Assembly: GCF_006345805.1 (NCBI RefSeq)
Contig: NC_043021.1
Coordinates: forward strand, 27,342,001-27,406,000
Reading direction: 5' to 3'
DNA: 64,000 bases
DNA from: Octopus sinensis
Lineage: Eukaryota
Shown: piece after piece, positions 7,686 to 64,000 of the stretch
How the letters are laid out: each line of letters begins with the position of its first letter
Position numbering within the stretch: position 1 is the first letter of the stretch
The notes under the pieces: model-generated
Told to the model about the DNA's origin: nothing
Databases searched by the model: none
The model's input: only the letters and a program-made list of their open reading frames with translations
Made by a program: the position numbers and the translations under genes

Positions 7686-8640
7686 CTAGACCCGACTAGC
7701 GCTTCGTTCAGAAGCATGTGTGTATTGAGTTAAGCGAATTATTAATTATATGTGCATAGCTTGCGTTTCTAAATATCTATCTGTCTGTCTGTCTGTCCTC
7801 TTTCATCTCTCTATGAGTATTTCTCTTAACTCACTGAATCTTTATATCATAAGATTCAGAACTTATATATAGTGTTTTCAATAGTTGGTTGAAGTGATTG
7901 CTGCCAGCAATTAAGACCTAATTTCTGGACACAAGGATTTAGAAGTGTGATAATAATATTTAGAATTCTCCAGATGTCTCGAAGACATTTTCTCTGTTCC
8001 ATTAAGTTCACGGTTAAAATCATTGCAAAATGGTACTTTCTCAGTTTTTCTTCTTTTCTCCCTTTCTACTCCTTCCTCCCCTTTTCTCTCTCTTTCATCT
8101 ACTTCTTTCTCCTCTCCCCACTTTTACCCCTCCCCCCACTCTCACATCTACTTCTTTCTTCTCTCCCCACATTCACCCCTCCCTCCCTAATCTCCTTCTC
8201 CCTTTCTGCTCCTCTATCTTCCTATCTTTTAGCTACTGCTTACCTACACACATTTTGCGGTCCACAGTTGCAGAAATGATTCGATCTCATGATATATAAA
8301 GGGGCGTGACAGGACGTCGAAAGACACAAAGTTGTTAATTATAGCAGTCTGACGGAATGTGGTACGATATTTTCTTTGGTTTTCCGCGCTCCGAGTTCAA
8401 ATCCTACGTGTTCCACTTTATACCGCCACACTTTTTTCTTAAAAAAGCATAAAAAAGAAAACCCTTTCGGTGTTGGTATATAAAATGCCATTCAGTCAAG
8501 TGAAGTTTATTTGCAACATAATTGTTCAAATCACGCAATGACCAGCTTTGTCTTCCTTCATTACGTGGTGGTTCAATAACGAACACATAGGATCGAACCT
8601 ACCTGTCTGCCTGTCTCTGAGGCTCACTTTACAGTCACCT

Positions 8641-11843: not shown

Positions 11844-12952
11844 GTTGTCCGGAAAGTTCGTGCCATTTATAATAGCGTACTTATTTTAGAACATGGTTGA
11901 GTCCATAAAATAGGATTTGGCTACACCTCCATTTAGAGCACAGTTTAAGCTATCTTTTCGTGGAAGAAGGTTTATGTTCCTATAACCTGTGTTAGTTCTG
12001 TAACCCTTTAAAATGGAAGATAAGAAAGTTCATTTTCGGCACTTGATGCTTTTCTTTTTTCGTAAAGGGAAAAATGCCTCACAAGCAACCAAAGAAATAT
12101 GCGCAGTTTACGGTGATGTTTCTTTATCCGAAAGAACTGTACGGAAGTGGTTCGCAAGGTTCCAAGCTGGAGATTGTAGCTTATTGATAAAGAGCGATCA
12201 GGCAGACCATCCACTACAGATGATGACCAAATAAAGTCATTAATTGAGAATAACCCACATTGCACAACTCGACAGTTGGCAGAAAGCCTCAACCTATCGA
12301 AATCCGTCGAGAAATGGATTATCTACCGAAATGTTCAGAGAAAGCGGCCCTGGAATAAGCGACATGAGCCACCGTTAGCCACTCCGAAAGCGGGCTTCAC
12401 CCCAAAATAGTCTTGCTTTGTGTCTAGTCGGATTGGAAAGGAATTCTGTACTATGAGCTTCTCTTAAGTAACCCAACAATTAATTCTGAGAAATACTGCA
12501 CACAACTGGATGAGTTAAAAGCAGCAGTTGAAGTGAAAGGTCCAGAATTGGCCAACAGGAAGGGTGTTGTTTTTCAACATGATAATATAAGACCGCATGT
12601 TTATTTGGGAACCAGACAAAAATTGCTGGAGCTCGGCTGGGATTTGTTACTCCACCCTACATATTCATCAGATATTGCTCCTTCGGATTTCCACTTATGC
12701 AGGTCTCTGCAGAATAGTCTTAATGGCAAAAATTTCAATTCCTTGGATGCCGTAAAAAGATACCTTGACGAATGCTTTGCCATGGAACCACCTCAATTCT
12801 GGGAAGAGGGTATTTTCAAGTTAAAGGAAAGATGGAGACGCATTGTGCAACAAAATGGTTAATATTTGGTTGATTAAAAATGTAATGGCAAGTATTTATT
12901 GACCTTTATCTTTCCTTTAAAAATCAGCACGAACTTTCCGGACAACCCGGAA
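11840..12952 (+). mobile_element. Mariner transposon (mellifera-like), internally deleted
   Basis: TIRs TTGGGTTGTCCGGAAAGTTCGTGC / GCACGAACTTTCCGGACAACCC, with (TA)n on the left. Confidence 0.93.
12013..12862 (+). pseudogene. Mariner transposase pseudogene
   Basis: HTH MEDKKVHFRHLMLFFFRKGKNAS..TVRKWFARF and catalytic region ..PELANRKGVVFQHDNIRPH..HPTYSSDIAPSDFHL. Frameshifts, stops and a deletion near 12305. Confidence 0.92.
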
Positions 12953-20165: not shown

Positions 20166-23023
20166 TAGTTTTATTTTTATAGCGTGCTTTCACTTCACCA
20201 CCGAGCGCAGCTCTGTGTGCCTTAGGTATGTGCTGTGATTTGTTGTGATGCTCTGATGGTTATTGTATGGAAAGTGTTATGCGTAGGATGTGTGCAGTGC
20301 CTAGTAGTGCAATTTTTTGTATGTTATATGTGTTTGTAAGTCCTGGTGTTTTTGTTATGTATTTGTCTGAATATTTTTTTTATCATGCCTAATGCACCTA
20401 CTATGATAGGAATTGTTTCTGTTTTTAGATTCCACATTCTGGTTACCTCTATTTCCAGGTTTTTGTATTTTGAAAGTTTCTCCATTTCTTTTAGAGACAC
20501 GTTGTCATCTGCCGGTATTGATACATCAATTAGAAAGCATTTTTTTTCTTCATGATCTCTGACAACTATATCTGGTCTGTTTTCTCTATCTGTGTGTATC
20601 GGCATATCTCAGAGTATGGTTGCTTTCTCGTTTTCTGTGACCTTTTCTGGTGTGTGCCTATACCATCTTTTTTCTGTTGTTATTCCATAATGTTGGCATA
20701 GCTTCCAATGTATGTAGGTTCCAACTCTGTCATATCTGTGAATATATTCCTTCTTAGCCAGGACTGGGAAGCCAGAGATAATATGATTTATTGTTTCTTG
20801 TCCATCTCCACATATTCTGCAGTTACTTGTTATATTTCTTTTCATTAAATGTTTTTGGTAATTTCTGGTGGGGAGGCTTTGGTCTTGTGCTGCAATTAAA
20901 AATCCCTCTGTCTCTGCTTTGAGTCCTGAGCTTCTCCACAATTGCTGGGGTTTTTCTTTGTCTATTTCTTTTGCATTTAGTTTAGTCCAGTATTTACCAT
21001 GAAGGGGCTTTTCTTGCCATCGTTTTATCATGGTTCGTTGCTGTTCTATTTTTCGTTTGGATTTCATTTGTTTTATAGCTTTTGTTGTTTCTTCCTCTTC
21101 TTCTCTTCTTCTTCTTCTCTTCTTCTTTCTTCTTTTCTTCTTCTCTTCTTCTTCTTCTTCTTCTTCTTCTTCTTCTTCTTCTTCTTCTTCTTCTTCTTCT
21201 TCTTCTTCTTTCTTCTTCTTCTTCTTCTTCTTCTTCTTTCTTCTTCTTCTTCTTCTTCTTCTTCTTCATATTTATTAGGTGGTATGATTTCTTGTTTGTA
21301 TTTGTCAGCTTCCTTAAATACTGAGAACAGTTTTTTTTTGCTCGTGTTTTGCCGCTATTTGAATCAGTTTTCCTTCCTTCTGAAGTAGATATTTTTGCAG
21401 TCCTATGGTGGTTACTTTATAGTAGTTTTCCAGCTGTATAAGGCCTCTACCACCTTCTATACGCTGTATATATAGTCTTTCTATGTCAGATTTTGGGTGA
21501 TGCATCCTAGATCCTGTCATTATTTTTCTTGTTTTCCTATCTATTTTGGTCAGTTCATTTAGTGTCCAGTTAAGGATATTGTAGCTGTAACTTATAACTG
21601 GGACAGCTAAAGTGTTAATACCTATTATCTTGTTTTTAGCATTGAGCTCTGTTTTTAGTATTGATCTAACTCGTCTATAATATACTTTTTTAATTTTCTC
21701 TTTCATTTGTGTGTGTTGTGTCTTATCTAGTTCATGGATTCCTAAGTATTTGTAAGTTTGGCTTTGGTCTAATTCTTTTATTTCATTGGTTTTATCTAGT
21801 GTGATGTTGCTACTCTTAACTAGTTTTCCTCTTTTCATGGTTACTTTGGCGCATTTTTCTAATCCAAATTTCATATCTATTTCTTTGGTAAATCCATGAA
21901 CTGTCTTTAATAGTGTTTCCAGCTGTTTGTCATTTGCAGCGTATAGTTTTAGGTCATCCATATATAAAAGGTGGCTGATCGTTTTGCCGTAACATTTATA
22001 TCCGCATCCAGTTCTATTTAGCATATCAGATAGTGGTGATAGTGCCAAGCAGGAACGGAGTGGAGAGAGCGTGTCTCCCTGGAATATTCCTCTTCTAATG
22101 GGGATGGTTTTGGTTTTCATGAGTCCCTCTTTTGTTTGGAGCTGTAGCACTGTTTGCCATTTATTCATAGAGTGCCCTATGAATTTTATAATTGTTGGTG
22201 CTACTTTGTTAATGGCTAGTGTTTCGAGGATCCATGTGTGGGGGATGCTATCAAACGCCTTTTTGTAGTCGATCCAGGCCATACTGAGGCCTTTCTTCTT
22301 TCTGTGGCTGTCTTCAGTTATGGCTTTATTAATCATTAGTTGATCTTTACAGCCATATGAGCCTTTGCGACATCCTTTCTCCTCTTCTGGAAACAGGTTG
22401 TTTTCGTCCAGGTGCTTGTTCAACCTTTGCAATGTCACTGCAGTAAATGCCTTGAACATTGTAGGGAGACAGGTTATTGGTCTGTAGTTTTCTGGTTTTG
22501 CTGTCTCATTTGATTTGGGAATTAAGATGGTTTTCCCCTTCGTGAGCCATTCAGGCATTGTCTCTGGCTCTGCTAGTATGTTGTTAAAGTTTTCAGCCAG
22601 CTTTTTGTGCATCCCTGTTAGATATTTCAACCAGAAGTTGGGGATCTTATCATGCTCAGGTGCCTTCCAGTTGCTTAGTCTTTGCAGTGCCTGGGTGACC
22701 TCTTCAGTTGTTATGGGGGTCCAAAGTTGCTCAGATGCTGAGTTTGTTGTTTTGATACTCCTTTTTTTTGGTTGTTCGTTCGCCGACCATATTTCTCTCC
22801 AGAATTCTTCCACTTCTTCTGCCGTTGGTGCTCCAGTGATTTCTATTTTATTTTTGCCAAGTTCTTGGTAGAACTTTGTGGGGTTGGAGTTGAACTTTTT
22901 GTTTTGTTCAAAGAAGCGTTGGCGTTTCTCGTACCGGCGGATCCTTTGTGCTTTGGCAAGGATATCTTGCTTCAGCTTTTCTTTTATCTCAGGTAAATCT
23001 TTTTCTGTGATGTTATATTTGCA

Positions 23024-23024
<1 letters not shown>
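20163..23024 (-). mobile_element. 5'-truncated R4/Dong-clade non-LTR retrotransposon (RT + CCHC + restriction-like endonuclease) inserted in (TAA)n
   Basis: RT motifs NYRPITCL, WIDYKKAFDSIPH, GIFQGDTLSP and YMDDLKLY. Zinc knuckle CRIC..ETINHIISG and RLE NRPDIVV..CFLIDVSIP..EKLSKY..IPIIVGALG. Both flanks are long (TTA)n. Confidence 0.95.
20260..23024 (-). pseudogene. RT-RLE polyprotein of the Dong-type element (frameshifted)
   Basis: ORF-track segments 21314-23209, 20609-21067 and 20324-20605, plus terminal QKIALLGTAHILRITLSIQ*. The poly-I N-terminus in the ORF track is flanking microsatellite. Confidence 0.9.
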
Positions 23025-23113
<89 letters not shown>

Positions 23114-23127
23114 CATCATCATCATCA

Positions 23128-23203
<76 letters not shown>

Positions 23204-23220
23204 CATCATTTTTAAATTAT

Positions 23221-24660
23221 TATACCCCCATGGCAGTTAATTTCGCTAAGGCATATATTACGAAATTCGAAGATACAGTTACTTCAGTATCCCTACATGG
23301 TCATGAACCAATACTCTGGTTACAGTTCATTGATGTTGTCTTTTTGTCTGGGAAGAATCACAGGATAGTTTAATTGACTTCTTGTATTTTGTGACTGTTA
23401 TGCTAAAAACTATAGCTTTAAGCCCAACATAAAATTTACGTTTAGTTTTCCAAAATCTAGTGTTAGATTTTTGGACACAAAAATTAAGTTTTCTGGAGGA
23501 AGAATAATGACAGAGTTATTTTTCAAGTCCACATCATCCCTCGTCATCCCACCGCTGCTCCAATCATCAGCATAATTTAATTCGGTCGAATTCCAAATCC
23601 GAATGTTTGAGGATAAAACAGATTTGCACTGACATAGGGGATTACTGGAAACATGCAAATGCTTTTGTACACCATTATGTGAAATGTGATTACAGTGAAG
23701 GAAATAGCAAATGAGATAGCTAAGATTAGCAAAGTCAAACCTTCACGCATAATTTTTGCAAACACAGTACAATATGTGACAGAGTTCCTTCAGTGTTTAA
23801 CAGGCACCGAAATTTCGCTGGCATTTCAAAAGTGTTGCAGAAAAATATCCTCGTTTCAAACAAATATTTCCGGAGCCGCCTATTGTAGCCTTTAGACGGA
23901 ATATATAAGAAAACTGTTATCCTCTGCTTCTGTACCTTGGAGTATCTGAACGCTGTACCTTGAAAAAACAGTCGCAAGAGAGTTAAACCATGTTGATTGT
24001 GCAGCAACATGAGTCACGTTGTTTTGATTCCATCAGGAATCATAACAGAAATGTTATGATTTATACAGAAGGTGGGACGTGTAGAGATTCCTATTTGTCG
24101 TACGCAGCAGAATGCATCAAATACAACTTGATTCATCTTGGTTGTAAAACAGAACAATTAAACAAAAGATTCAATGGGCGCAAATATGACGTCAGGCACA
24201 ATAATAGTATTTCGACAGAACATGCCGAACATTTTGCCTCAAACGGCTGAAATTTTGAAAAAAACTTGAAAGTGCGTATTCTCAGAAAATATTCTGAATC
24301 TGCTACACTTTCAGTGCTCAAAATGCATGAGGAGAAATATGCTTGTAGGTTATTAACATCACGCCCTCGAGGAATGAATAAAATGGCAGGAGAATTTCAT
24401 AAAATTTACGCAAAAACTGTTTGATTAAACATTCTTCTATTCCCCATTCTTTTTCTTCTATTTTTTCGTTCTTTTATTTTTTGCTTGTTGTAAAATTGAA
24501 CTTTGAAGACTGATGATATCATTCCATCAACGTATGGATGCTGGTTGCTCTCGTTCACATTTTGGATTTGAATTTCTATAATTTTGAATTTGTATCACTT
24601 TTCATTTTGAACTCGACAAAGACAGGCTTGCTGTCAAAATATCTATTGCAATCGCATCAC
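23221..24660 (+). mobile_element. Decayed Penelope-like element (RT + GIY-YIG, Neptune-like)
   Basis: Frameshifted PMAVNFAKAYITKFE..PILWLQFIDVVF-VW, IKFT..VRFLDTKI..TELFFKST, then C..SY...C..NLIHLG.T..LNKRFNG..YDV..TEHAEHF..LKVRIL..KMHEEKYACRLLTSRPRGMN (ends 24424). A CTGATGA occurs at 24510 in the 3' region. Confidence 0.85.
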
Positions 24661-32618: not shown

Positions 32619-32778
32619 AAAATAAAATAAATATAAGAGAGTGGTCACTATATTGCTCACTCTAGCACCAGTTAATCCAAAAGGTTTCAACCACGAAAAT
32701 ACATGTTTCCCATGAAAGCCAGTACGACTGTTAGCTCACACGGACAGGGCAATAAAAAATAACAAAATACAGATTATT

Positions 32779-32855
32779 TTGGGACAATTGTTTCGCTATT
32801 AATGAATTAAATGTAATATTACTTACAAAAAATCCATTTGTAGCTCGTCAGCCAA
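32779..32855 (-). ncRNA. Type I hammerhead ribozyme
   Basis: Minus strand: ttgg-CTGACGA-gcta..tagc-GAAA-CAATTG-TC-ccaa. Confidence 0.85.
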
Positions 32856-32921
32856 GACTACGCGTATTTATCGTTATGGTAAAATCTGGCGTGTGATTGA
32901 GTGGATTTCATCCAGATAGTC

Positions 32922-32996
32922 TTGGCTGACGAGCTACAAATGGATTTTTTGTAGTAATATTACATTAATTCATTAATAGCGAAACAATTGTCCCAA
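32922..32996 (+). ncRNA. Type I hammerhead ribozyme
   Basis: ttgg-CTGACGA-gcta..tagc-GAAA-CAATTG-TC-ccaa. All core nucleotides are canonical, with a GUC site and palindromic stem III ACAATTGT. Confidence 0.88.
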
Positions 32997-33451
32997 AATA
33001 ATCTGTATTTTGTTATTTTTTATTTGCCCTGTCCGTGTGAGCTAACAGTCGTACTGGCTTTCATGGGAAACATGTATTTTCGTGGTTGAAACCTTTTGGA
33101 TTAACTGGTGCTAGAGTGAGCAATATAGTGACCACTCTCTTATATTTATTTTGTAAAAATATTATAATATGTTATAAAATATTATAATAATCCAGGTTTC
33201 TCGTAGCACTAGGCCACTTGGTGTTGAATAAATATACTATTAAATTAGTATCTAATTCTCTCACCTTATTAATTAATTATAATTATGCTGCATTTATTTC
33301 TAAATGCTGTATTTGTTTTCCGTGAAAGTTTGGCGCGCTGTTGGTTGGGGCATTTGAATTATAACGTCGGATGTAATCAATTGAACCACACGCGTATTTA
33401 TCGTTATGGTAAAATCTGGCGTGTGATTGAGTGGATTTCATCCAGATAGTC

Positions 33452-33527
33452 TTGGCTGACGAGCTACAAATGGATTTTTTGTAAGTAATATTACATTTAT
33501 TCATTAATAGCGAAACAATTGTCCCAA
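33452..33527 (+). ncRNA. Type I hammerhead ribozyme (tandem copy)
   Basis: Same motif 530 bp downstream. Confidence 0.88.
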
Positions 33528-33955
33528 AATATCTGTATTTTGTTATTTTTTATTTGCCCTGTCCGTGTGAGCTAACAGTCGTACTGGCTTTCATGGGAAA
33601 CATGTATTTTCGTGGTTGAAACCTTTTGGATTAACTGGTGCTAGAGTGAGCAATATAGTGACCACTCTCTTATATTTATTTTGTAAAAATATTATAATAT
33701 GTTATAAAATATTATAATAATCCAGGTTTCTCGTAGCACTAGGCCACTTGGTGTTGAATAAATATACTATTAAATTAGTATCTAATTCTCTCACCCTTAT
33801 TAATTAATATATATATATATATATTATATATATATATATCTATATATATATATATATATAAGTTCAGCAAAATTAGATTCAGATGAATATGGTACTTAAG
33901 TCAAAGGCACCACAATTTGGTATGGTATTATCCATATAAATCAAATGGGGTGATT

Positions 33956-49754: not shown

Positions 49755-52586
<2,832 letters not shown>

Positions 52587-59874: not shown

Positions 59875-59934
<60 letters not shown>

Positions 59935-59935
59935 T
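59728..59935. repeat. (TA)n microsatellite
   Basis: Visible. Confidence 0.97.
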
Positions 59936-60333
59936 TATAATAGGATTAGCTCGTATACGAGTAGGTATATATTTGTAAAAAATGAAGTTCGAAAATGCTG
60001 CTATATTATACAATTTTTAATTTTATATATACATTATAACATGTTTCAGTTCCTGAAATGAACCTTATCAAAAAAAGTTTATATATAAAAAAAGACAGCT
60101 CATGCCGTCAAACACAAGAAATTCATTTACAATACACAACGGAGTCAGACATCTTAAAGTTCAAATATAGTTTGAAGTAAGTTCATTCATGCTATATGTT
60201 CAAAGTGTTCGATGCAGTGGCCCCGGTGGCGATACGTATTCAATACAAAAAACAGATCAAAGTGGTGGAAAGCAGTCTATACAGAAGATTGATGTTCCCG
60301 AAAGAGCGAGAAGGTCTCTAGTAATTGTTCGGG

Positions 60334-60880
60334 TTTTATAATGCCTGTTAGGTGGTCAGTCCAGCGTAGCGTGACGTCATCAACGTTTGACCAATCGTTT
60401 CGTTAGGTGGCTTAGTCAAGCAGAACGGTACGTCATCAACATTCTGACCAATCGTGACCTATCGCTGTTTTATACTGCCTCTTGTCTGTATCCTGTTTTG
60501 ACCAGTCGTTTCGTTAGGTGGCTTAGTCAAGCAGGACGGTACGTCATCATGATTCTGACCAATCACGACTTATAGCTGTATTAGATCTGCCCCTTTTCGT
60601 TAGGTGGCTTAGTCAAGCAGAACGGGACGTCATCACATTCTGACCAATCGTAACCTATCGCTGTGTATAACTGCCTCTTGTCTGTATCCTGTTTTGACCA
60701 GTCGTTTCGTTAGGTGGCTTAGTCAAGCAGAACGGGACGTCATCAAGATTCTGCCCAATCACGACTTATAGCTCCATTAGATCTGCCCCCTGTCTGTATT
60801 TTGTTAGGTGACTAGTCAAGCAGAAAGGTACGTCATCAATATTCTGACTAATCTCTGCCCCCTGTTTGTATCCTTGTCCA
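60334..60880 (-). promoter_or_regulatory. TATA box preceded by six tandem CRE/CCAAT modules
   Basis: Minus-strand TATAAAA at 60334-60340 and TGACGTCA at 60372. ACGTCA at 60374, 60430, 60541, 60627, 60737 and 60830. CCAAT at 60391, 60448, 60559, 60644 and 60755. Repeat marker GTTAGGTG. Confidence 0.55.
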
Positions 60881-60887
60881 TTATATT

Positions 60888-61319: not shown

Positions 61320-61322
<3 letters not shown>
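60950..61322 (-). mobile_element. SINE family A copy
   Basis: Diagnostic blocks. Confidence 0.82.
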
Positions 61323-61350
<28 letters not shown>

Positions 61351-61352
<2 letters not shown>

Positions 61353-64000
61353 AGTCTGCGCAGTGATATGATTAGTTAGGGAGAGTAATTCATTAGACGC
61401 ACATGCTTCTAGTGAGTTAGGATCCCAGAAAAACAGTGGGTCTCACTGAAGAATTCTCCCTGGCCAACATAAATAAATTTATTTATTGCTGAAAAGAAAG
61501 AAACTGCAGTCTGAGAATTACCGGTTTAGTAAATGTTTTTATCTTCATTTCACTTAATTTATCAAGCTTCTGTATTCCTAGCACATATTTCGCCTTAATG
61601 TACTGATATATGAAAAATATATGGCTTGTGTTAGTATACCAGCGATTATAATTATTTTTATTTTATCGCAATTTGATTTGTTTACATATTTCTCGATAAA
61701 TTATGAGCGCCAGGCGATATAACCAGAATTCCCTAGTGTGTCGGGACGTTCGGAGTCTGCGCAGTGATATGATTAGTTAGGGAGAGAATTCATTAGACGC
61801 ACATGCTTCTAGTGAGTTAGGATCCCAGAAAAACAGGTCTCACTGAACGAATTCTCCCTGGGCAAATAAATTATCTTTATTGCTGAAAAGAAAGAAACTG
61901 CAGTCTGAGAATTACCGGTTTAGTAAATGTTTTATCGTCCATTCACTTAATTTATCAAGCTTCTGTATTCCTAGAACATATTTTCGCCTTATGCTTAATG
62001 ACTGATATATGAAAAATATATGGCTTGTGTTGTATATACCAGCGATTATAATTATTTTTTTTATTTTATCGCAATTTGATTTGTTTACATATTTCTCGAT
62101 AAATTATGAGCGCCAGGCGATATACCAGAATTCCTAGTGTTGTCGGGACGTTCGGGTCTCTGCGCTGAGTGATATGATTAGTTAGGGAGAGTAATTCATT
62201 AGACGCACATGCTTCTAGTGAGTTAGGATCCCAGAAAAACAGGGTCTCACTGAAGAATTCTCCCTGGGCAAATAAATTATCTTATTGCTGAAAAGAAAGA
62301 AACTGCAGTCTGAGAATTACCGGTTTAGTAAATGTTTTTATCTTCATTTCACTTAATTTATCAAGCTTCTGTATTCCTAGCACATATTTCGCCTTAATGT
62401 ACTGATATATGAAAAATATATGGCTTGTGTTAGTAATACCAGCCAGCGATTATAATTATTTTTATTTTATCATCGCATTTGATTTGTTTACATATTTCTC
62501 GATAAATTATGAGCGCCAGGCGATATACCAGAATTCCCTAGTGTTGTCGGACGTTCGGAGTCTGCGCAGTGATATGATTAGTTAGGAGAGTAATTCATTA
62601 GACGCACATGCTTCTAGTGAGTTAGGATCCCAGAAAAACAGGGTCTCACTGAAGAATTCTCCCTGGGCAAATAAATTATCTTTATTGCTGAAAAGAAAGA
62701 AACTGCAGTCTGAGAATTACCGGTTTAGTAAATGTTTTTATCTCTTCATTTCACTTAATTTATCAAGCTTCTGTATTCCTAGCACATATTTCGCCTTAAT
62801 GTACTGATATATGAAAAATATATGGCTTGTTTTAGTATACCCAGCGATTATAATTATTTTTATTTTATCGCAATTTGATTTGTTTACATATTTCTCGATA
62901 AATTAATGAGCGCCAGCGATATACCAGAATTCCCTAGTGTTGTCGGACGTTCGGAGTCTGCGCAGTGATATGATTAGTTAGGGAGAGTAATTCATTAGAC
63001 GCACATGCTTCTAGTGAGTTAGGATCCCAGAAAAACAGGGTCTCACTGAAGAATTCTCCCTGGGCAAATAAATTATCTTTATTGCTGAAAAGAAAGAAAC
63101 TGCAGTCTGAGAATTACGGTTTAGTAAATGTTTTTATCTTCATTTCACTTAATTTATCAAGCTTCTGTATTCCTAGCACACATATTTCGCCTTAATGTAC
63201 TGATATATATGAAAAATATATGGCTTGTGTTAGTAATACCAGCGATTATTATTTTTTTTATTTTATCGCAATTTGATTTGTTTACATATTTCTCGATAAA
63301 TTAAGAGCGCCAGGCGATATACCAGAATTCCCTAGTGTTGTCGGGACGTTCGGAGTCTGCGCAGTGATATGATAGTTAGGGAGAGTATTCATTAGACGCA
63401 CATGCTTCTAGTGAGTTAGGATCCCAGAAAAACAGGGTCTCACTGAAGAATTCTCCCTGGGCAAATAAATTATCTTTATTGCTGAAAAGAAAGAACTGCA
63501 GTCTGAGAATTACCGGTTTAGTAAATGTTTTTATCTTCATTTCACTTAATTTATCAAGCTTCTGTATTCCTAGCACATATTTCGCCTTAATGTACTGATA
63601 TATGAAAAATATATGGCTTGTGTTAGTAATACCAGCGATTATAATTATTTTTATTTTATCGCAATTTGATTTGTTTACATATTTCTCGATAAATTATGAG
63701 CGCCAGGCGATATACCAGAATTCCCTAGTGTTGTCGGGACGTTCGGAGTCTGCGCAGTGATATGATTAGTTAGGGAGAGTAATTCATTAGACGCACATGC
63801 TTCTAGTGAGTTAGGATCCCAGAAAAACAGGGTCTCACTGAAGAATTCTCCCTGGGCAAATAAATTATCTTTATTGCTGAAAAGAAAGAAACTGCAGTCT
63901 GAGAATTACCGGTTTAGTAAATGTTTTTATCTTCATTTCACTTAATTTATCAAGCTTCTGTATTCCTAGCACATATTTCGCCTTAATGTACTGATATATG
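61351..64000 (+). repeat. ~400 bp tandem array with one hammerhead per unit (retrozyme-like), at least 6.6 units, running off the window
   Basis: Units start at ~61351, 61752, 62154, 62557, 62953, 63352 and 63745 (GGAGTCTGCGCAGTGATATG or a close variant). The array begins immediately after (TA)n. Confidence 0.95.
62644..62715 (+). ncRNA. Type I hammerhead motif, representative array copy (others at 61441, 61838, 62245, 63041, 63438, 63833)
   Basis: tctca-CTGAAGA-a-ttct..gcaaataaa-ttatc-tttattgc..agaa-a-GAAA-CTGCAG-TC-tgaga. Stem I is 5 bp, stem III is the palindrome ACTGCAGT, and the site is GUC. Confidence 0.75.

Follow-up and report, generated by a model that had tools for sequence, protein, structure and literature searches.

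The tandem array at positions 61351 to 64000 of the window, the 64,000-nucleotide stretch of Octopus sinensis DNA analysed here, is one copy of a young, dispersed family of non-LTR retrozymes. The retrozyme class is already known; what is new here is the anatomy of the insertions and an odd closing pair in the hammerhead. That the family is a hammerhead-bearing, reverse-transcribed and non-autonomous element we regard as nearly certain. The mobilising enzyme is very probably that of a Penelope-like element (PLE), self-cleavage by the hammerhead is predicted and probable, and it is somewhat probable that a circle serves as the main template. As a whole, our best explanation, which we hold with modest confidence, is a PLE-type retrozyme whose reverse transcription runs round a monomer circle; the insertion anatomy fits Penelope-type priming on such a circle better than it fits the copying of linear masters. 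Why does this matter? The origin of the tandem arrays of retrozymes and Penelope elements is disputed between reverse transcription of circles and local amplification of DNA, and the ribozyme was dispensable in one in vitro study of a PLE. In a young family the answer can be read from the insertion ends, and a mapped start site and target, together with intact PLE frames, make the choice between circle and linear template testable.

Within the window, TRF reports for 61351-64000 a period of 397, 6.6 copies and 94% matches, directly 3' of the (TA)n tract at 61322-61350, just as the original prediction of a homogeneous tandem repeat following (TA)n had stated. When the adjoining stretch is included, the whole array is 5491 bp long and comprises 13.9 units with 14 hammerhead motifs; it begins 242 nt beyond a cut site and ends at window-equivalent 66822, where (TA)n follows. 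The prediction had also named seven in-phase motifs, single-base indels in the cores of copies 2 and 6, and the lack of a real ORF. All seven motifs were recovered, at a spacing of 394-405, both indels are present, and the sole frame of at least 90 aa in the array is a 105-aa stop-to-stop frame on the minus strand. The two core indels are probably assembly noise, and single-base indel noise appears to account for most differences between the units in the window; the core is intact in 12 of the 14 motifs of the full array. All counts in this work depend on one indel-rich assembly (2.72 Gb). The features are as follows.

61351..64000, plus strand: retrozyme array, comprising the first 6.7 of its 13.9 units (each about 396 nt, 35% G+C), from TRF and flanking sequence
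61322..61350, strand not assigned: 5' part of the (TA)n target, whose 3' part lies beyond the window, after the last unit
61441..61516, plus strand: type I hammerhead copy 1, predicted cut after 61511; distal stem II unlike that of the other units
61838..61910, plus strand: hammerhead copy 2, predicted cut after 61905; core with one extra base in CUGAnGA
62245..62315, plus strand: hammerhead copy 3, predicted cut after 62310
62644..62715, plus strand: hammerhead copy 4, predicted cut after 62710; Rfam Hammerhead_1 21.2 bits
63041..63112, plus strand: hammerhead copy 5, predicted cut after 63107
63438..63508, plus strand: hammerhead copy 6, predicted cut after 63503; GAAA without one A
63833..63904, plus strand: hammerhead copy 7, predicted cut after 63899
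62880..62892, plus strand: internal copy of the fixed 3' end and putative priming site, GUUU/ACAUAU (break at the slash), 173 nt beyond the cut; in the other internal copies the break falls before 61684, 62087, 62490, 63284 and 63677

What is the evidence for a hammerhead? Each unit contains a 5-bp stem I, CUGAAGA, stem II, GAAA, an 8-nt palindrome that forms stem III, and GUC. In copy 4, stem II opens with A·A, the mismatch that the original prediction had flagged at position 10.1-11.1, and continues with a 4-bp proximal part and a long distal hairpin. A search pattern consisting of the core and stem III has 540 matches in the genome and the reversed control has 1, so the motif is not due to chance. 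The check proposed at the outset, a comparison with Rfam Hammerhead_1, succeeded in part: this model is the best match on a 151-nt stretch of one copy (21.2 bits, E 0.0045), but the gathering score of 34 is not reached, and no hammerhead was reported when 6 kb or the entire window was scanned. The core and stem III pattern also exposed a sister subfamily, B, which is 82% identical over 403 columns to the subfamily just described, A. Hammerhead_1 is likewise the best match to B, at 30.6 bits, below the same gathering score. The proximal stem II reads GCCUA/UAGGC in subfamily B but AUUCU/AGAAA in subfamily A; the 10.1-11.1 closing position is thus a canonical G-C in B, and in A the G10.1-C11.1 pair gives way to A·A. 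In a gapless alignment both sides of the four pairs behind the closing position differ between A and B (MAFFT put a gap there instead). Similarly, a C-G pair of stem I has become U-A in six of 18 haplotypes. Across these haplotypes 97.6% of cells are paired, a value reached by none of 500 shuffles, a control that kin sequences can beat and that is read here against few compensatory events. Stem I is 98.9% paired and stem III 100%, the latter a constancy that is not independent because the stem III letters formed part of the search pattern; the free position N7 is A, U or C. Since stems I and II have changed in a compensated fashion, the fold appears to have been kept, and we consider a hammerhead fold supported by the compensatory changes between the subfamily sequences.

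The A·A is retained across A-type subfamilies up to about 7% apart, one of which also carries U4C. This last subfamily (A'', L211-L222, 17 matches) has the core CCGAUGA, the A·A and a compensated stem I; it is still inserted as multi-unit arrays and is found too in contigs of runs X1 and X6. In another hammerhead family of the genome, 10.1-11.1 is C·A. According to the accessible text of PMC3088659, this pair is the most conserved after A15.1-U16.1, and a natural U·U is known; our literature search on mismatches at 10.1-11.1 did not find A·A. The subfamilies provide a natural hammerhead series on one scaffold: G-C, A·A, and A·A with U4C. With regard to folding, the MFE structure of a lone motif is an inactive one, 7-8 kcal/mol below the active fold. 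Two motifs that form a common 8-bp stem III are about 15 kcal/mol better than two monomer folds and lie 6-9 above the overall minimum, so the expectation that a short palindromic stem III favours the dimer is borne out by fold prediction. From these modelled energies we infer that cleavage would be dimer-dependent and that a monomer circle would be protected. The circle itself is not strongly self-paired (65% paired; z -1.4 for A and -2.2 for B against 60 shuffles).

We propose that the insertion ends hold the record of how the family spreads. A search with one unit yielded 193 matches in 38 arrays (38 scored of 764 candidates), spread over 16 chromosome-scale and 4 small contigs. One common end, 173 nt beyond the cut and followed by (TA)n, is found in 37 of these 38 arrays, and the remaining one ends at the ribozyme; the 5' ends are scattered over the unit. 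Likewise, subfamily B has the same end point in 14 of 14 loci. The exact 3' junction occurs 212 times genome-wide and not once in the control, in agreement with the anticipated dispersal of TA-flanked arrays. Inversions of the 5' end are present at two loci. Past the 3' end the unit would read ACAUAU, one letter off the target. Among 118 ends, 111 read as target and seven keep the unit's next letters, the background rate being 4 of 777 sites (Fisher p 1e-4), and two copies of subfamily B retain their own unit variant past the 3' end. The unit letters kept at those seven ends argue that each insertion was primed anew, inside a template that continues. A concentration of 5' ends immediately beyond the cut is a hint only: it involves five of 14 first-pass ends (p 0.05, in a window chosen afterwards) and none in later passes. 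A count of 358 matches in the sequence directly following the cut was uninformative. At L087 and L129, insertions have been doubled or tripled along with flanking sequence (600 bp and about 730 bp), by local DNA duplication or by misassembly around (TA)n.

With a non-coding unit in the range of 150-450 bp, low G+C, a hammerhead in each unit, a dispersed distribution and no LTR structure, the family matches the retrozyme class. The initial reading of a retrozyme array is upheld by the dispersed, TA-flanked, non-coding repeats, in which every unit has a single type I hammerhead whose stem III is palindromic. Could it instead be an ordinary satellite spread as DNA, by extrachromosomal circles or rolling-circle DNA transposition, its hammerhead a fossil or a chance resemblance? 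The Rfam score below the gathering score is in keeping with that idea, and conservation of the core relative to the rest of the unit, which we rejected as a test, cannot be fairly demonstrated, since copies were found via the core letters and U4 itself varies. Such a satellite would not be expected to show a fixed, strand-specific end opposite a random one in 37 of 38 arrays, nor to have one third of its insertions shorter than 100 nt, nor to carry compensatory stem changes. We regard this explanation as largely refuted and highly improbable.

The lengths of the insertions bear on the nature of the template. For the census, all junctions on C1-C5 were listed and 72 of 78 rows were kept, the six dropped rows being both ends of an inverted element, three duplicates that include their flanks and one interrupted array (L059). 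The 72 insertions have a median length of 218 nt, and 24 are shorter than 100 nt; at least one cut site is crossed in 40 of them, at least two in 20, at least three in 12 and at least four in eight. Lengths past the first cut are exponential (KS p 0.83) and the 5' phases are even (Rayleigh p 0.32). The drop-off rates, 1.39/kb between 178 and 396 nt and 1.54/kb beyond unit length, do not differ (p 0.86), and the survivors predicted from the drop-off (23.2, 13.4, 7.7 and 1.6) compare with 20, 12, 8 and 1 observed. The class shorter than one unit cannot be amplified by crossover, yet its drop-off predicts the longer classes, which argues that most arrays were born multi-unit. Furthermore, a cut linear monomer would yield at most 173 nt, and jumps from end to end should blur the joint at the cut site, yet the joint is exact in 196 of 200 copies; the template would therefore be either circular or an uncut multimer. 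At 4.3-11 kb, four arrays, among them that of the window, are longer than a constant drop-off allows (for each array of 5.5 kb, p is about 3e-4). An array of 28 units (L085) has a 190-nt AT-rich interruption at 8030-8222, either a real insertion or assembly noise.

The chief competitor to a circle uses the same enzyme and the same priming site. It holds that the template is an uncut linear multimer RNA transcribed from long masters and that arrays regrow by unequal crossover, with circles, if any, as by-products and a hammerhead that acts slowly, needs a protein or can be dispensed with. There is precedent for it, as uncut RNA was the main substrate of an anole PLE in vitro and the hammerhead was not needed (PMC11167929, accessible text), and the accessible part of a 2026 preprint (bioRxiv 10.64898/2026.07.22.740005) favours local amplification. 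In addition, the A·A and U4C may weaken the ribozyme, and the longest arrays (11-28 units), which head four haplotype groups, could be the masters. What do the variants within arrays say? In arrays of at least four units, 76 variants are fixed and 24 occur in a subset of units; many of the fixed ones are inherited lineage markers rather than independent events, and the subset-shared ones are about as numerous as a duplication model gives. Shared variants with a period of three units are commoner than those of other periods in L039, L058, L042 and L056, which indicates that DNA duplication lengthens arrays too and, like the flank-including tandem duplications, accords with regrowth at the DNA level. 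Trimer circles were considered as a source of the period-3 variants; two sites in L058 mismatch, and DNA duplication is preferred. On the other side, arrays of five to six units carry all-unit variants found in no other array of the assembly. Two such sets were counted genome-wide and each is private to one array, with four matches for that of L053 (5.5 units) and six of six units for that of L060. A linear master should carry these variants elsewhere, and a circle would copy one monomer's changes to every lap, so that private array-wide sets favour the circle. Similarly, the daughters of the 28-unit haplotype bear extra fixed variants that are absent from the 28-unit array. The sub-unit drop-off that predicts the longer classes and the compensated changes in stems I and II, with the fold kept, also weigh against linear masters, although masters may be absent from this haploid, indel-rich assembly. 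We consider copying of uncut multimers unlikely, while a circle as main template remains the reading we favour.

Which enzyme would prime on such a circle? GIY-YIG matched 147 of the 150 loci scored among 5029 candidates, and two PLE families have intact frames with RT and GIY-YIG, of 781 aa at L179 and 775 aa at L186. By a cysteine motif, on our own reading of the accessible text of PMC8557442, these frames appear Neptune-like. Copies of the first family (L179 type) are 98-99% alike, end in (TA)n and bear a small hammerhead-like motif. We detected no sequence common to the unit and the PLEs in 32 GIY-YIG loci (150 of 5029 candidates scored), and the likeness at the priming site is equalled by 43 of 925 control windows. 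Within the window, 59926-60885 on the minus strand is a 3' fragment of the young L179-type family of RT and GIY-YIG PLEs, with the optional tail, in (TA)n; it lies 470 bp upstream of the array on the opposite strand, and the 57/196-bp repeats at 60374-60853 are part of it. A tblastn search of the window with two PLE proteins yielded no coding remnant, so that the earlier description of PLE remnants as common there was overstated. According to the available portion of PMC11167929, reverse transcription by a PLE begins within its RNA and AT-rich DNA is nicked. Internal start, tandem copies, 5' truncation and 5' inversion, the marks of the PLE type, are all present in the retrozyme family.

A LINE that targets microsatellites could have mobilised the retrozyme in place of a PLE. 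The PLEs examined show no sequence link to the unit, and the two-site tail is absent: no optional 30-40-nt PLE tail (two start sites) was seen among the 38 loci plus 20 loci found regardless of end. LINE remnants do lie in microsatellites within the window. Yet priming inside the RNA is a habit of PLEs, the PLEs of this genome bear hammerheads and end in the (TA)n target too, the two-site PLE end occurs in a family whose stem III is identical, and no tail in common with a LINE was seen among the sequences examined. We judge mobilisation by a LINE improbable and retain a PLE as the likely source of the enzyme.

The stretch is present in 19 of the 24 runs listed, which come from four organisms; none of these runs is recorded as RNA, and 14 are RNA by guess only. 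The head-to-tail joint is seen in two of the latter and in two others, as is the same (TA)n end, and the ends do not accumulate at any point. In the RNA-guess runs the unit occurs as low-depth contigs, in which a transcript is not distinguishable from DNA, nor a circle from a tandem. In run X1, a contig ending one base past the cut and another with A before and B after the cut were considered as ligation of unlike monomers; they belong instead to a genomic subfamily with 17 matches.

Several other elements deserve mention. Family C (window 32624-33808) is an unrelated hammerhead tandem element with a unit of about 530 nt and a canonical stem II, ending in (TA)n; its motifs lie at 32921 and 33451 on the plus strand, an inverted 5' partial copy has a motif near 32856 on the minus strand, and it is 90-95% alike to copies in L181/L182. 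Family E (L191-L210, for example L203-L205 and L209) has a unit of about 357 nt and the same palindromic stem III as the retrozyme family, with C3-G8 and U3-A8 core variants, and a stem II closed by C·A or G-C; its 5' end is often inverted, and its two 3' ends are separated by about 45 nt. The search pattern by which it was identified gave 1098 matches against 101 in the control, with several families mixed, and Rfam gave no match on locus L209. Family D (L206; G000:C1:149304136-149306252) is a tandem unit of about 505 nt with the same stem III, an A-U pair closing stem II and an inverted first copy. Distinct hammerhead-like motifs with a long stem II and a palindromic stem III of 6-10 nt occur in the flanks of the unrelated loci L098, L113, L080, L082 and L051, which suggests that the genome contains many such hammerhead families. 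A UUUACA-plus-hairpin motif common to the 3' ends of the retrozyme family, family E and the L179 PLE was not above control and was dropped. Elsewhere in the window, 20324-23236 on the minus strand is a LINE remnant with RT (Pfam RVT_1), interrupted by trinucleotide repeats, which we take to be R4/Dong-like; 50335-52149 on the plus strand is presumably an L1/Tx1-like remnant, and 12428-12862, also on the plus strand, presumably a mariner-like fragment.

We propose the following cycle. Hammerheads would pair up as dimers and cut the read-through transcripts of a tandem array, and a host ligase would close the 396-nt monomer to a circle, in which the single hammerhead would be folded inactive. 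The GIY-YIG/RT protein of an autonomous PLE would then nick a (TA)n tract, and the nick would prime reverse transcription at one fixed internal site of the RNA, 173 nt beyond the cut. The enzyme would lap the circle with a roughly constant chance of falling off, so that a new insertion would comprise 0.1 to about 6 identical units, its 3' end being fixed and its 5' end random. DNA duplication would later lengthen some of the arrays, probably that of the window among them. More tentatively, the genome can be imagined as a fossil record of rolling-circle reverse transcription, with up to six or more laps of a ribozyme-made circle written into (TA)n per event, in which a hammerhead mismatched (A·A) at a pair regarded as nearly essential works only as a dimer and is silent in the circle, and several unrelated hammerhead families follow the same route; this broader picture is possible, and we would not yet lean on it.

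How does the family compare with known systems? Our search of the published literature, which covered article texts, found neither a retrozyme from a cephalopod nor an analysis of the ends of retrozyme insertions, and ribozymes are not mentioned in the accessible part of an Octopus vulgaris repeat annotation (PMC13282606). For the sources compared below, the likenesses and differences refer to the text accessible to us. Animal non-LTR retrozymes are known in coral, mussel and axolotl, and copying of circles to tandem cDNA has been proposed for them (Cervera & de la Pena 2020, PMC7229834); PMC4209133 and PMC7761336 likewise propose that circles are reverse-transcribed beyond one unit. Like the coral, Mytilus and axolotl retrozymes, the family here consists of non-coding tandem units of 150-450 bp with G+C below 45% and one type I hammerhead per unit, in dimers to long multimers; the Mytilus mussel unit is 350-390 bp and that of the family here 396 nt. 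Unlike those retrozymes, it has A·A at 10.1-11.1 and a long, two-part stem II, and its short palindromic stem III is amphibian-like though the host is an invertebrate. It also has a strict (TA)n target, a single fixed 3' end and no visible target duplication, where PMC7229834 gives no insertion-end data.

A survey of 35 genomes, no mollusc among them, links retrozymes to PLEs (Li, Clavereau & Pollet 2026, bioRxiv 10.64898/2026.07.22.740005). There, as here, retrozymes co-occur with Neptune-type PLEs as monomers to multimers, and PLE machinery is inferred. Homology to the pLTR was reported for 21 of 57 Xenopus families and none was found here, and eight of nine Xenopus retrozyme dimers did not cleave. 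While that survey favours local amplification, the length and variant patterns here point to arrays mostly born multi-unit. With Chlamys PLEs (MRC1) and the (TA)n-targeting Naiads (Craig 2021, PMC8557442) the family shares multicopy, head-to-tail, non-autonomous elements and a microsatellite target; the MRC1 and Naiad clades are without canonical hammerheads, and their non-autonomous copies resemble the 3' end of their partner. Finally, both the family here and Poseidon of Anolis (Frangieh 2024, PMC11167929) start inside the RNA downstream of the hammerhead, at an AT-rich target, with tandem copies, 5' truncation and occasional 5' inversion. Unlike Poseidon, the unit here has no ORF and one start site rather than two, and whereas the start site of Poseidon is not homologous to its target, that of the family here resembles it (UACAUAU and TATATAT).
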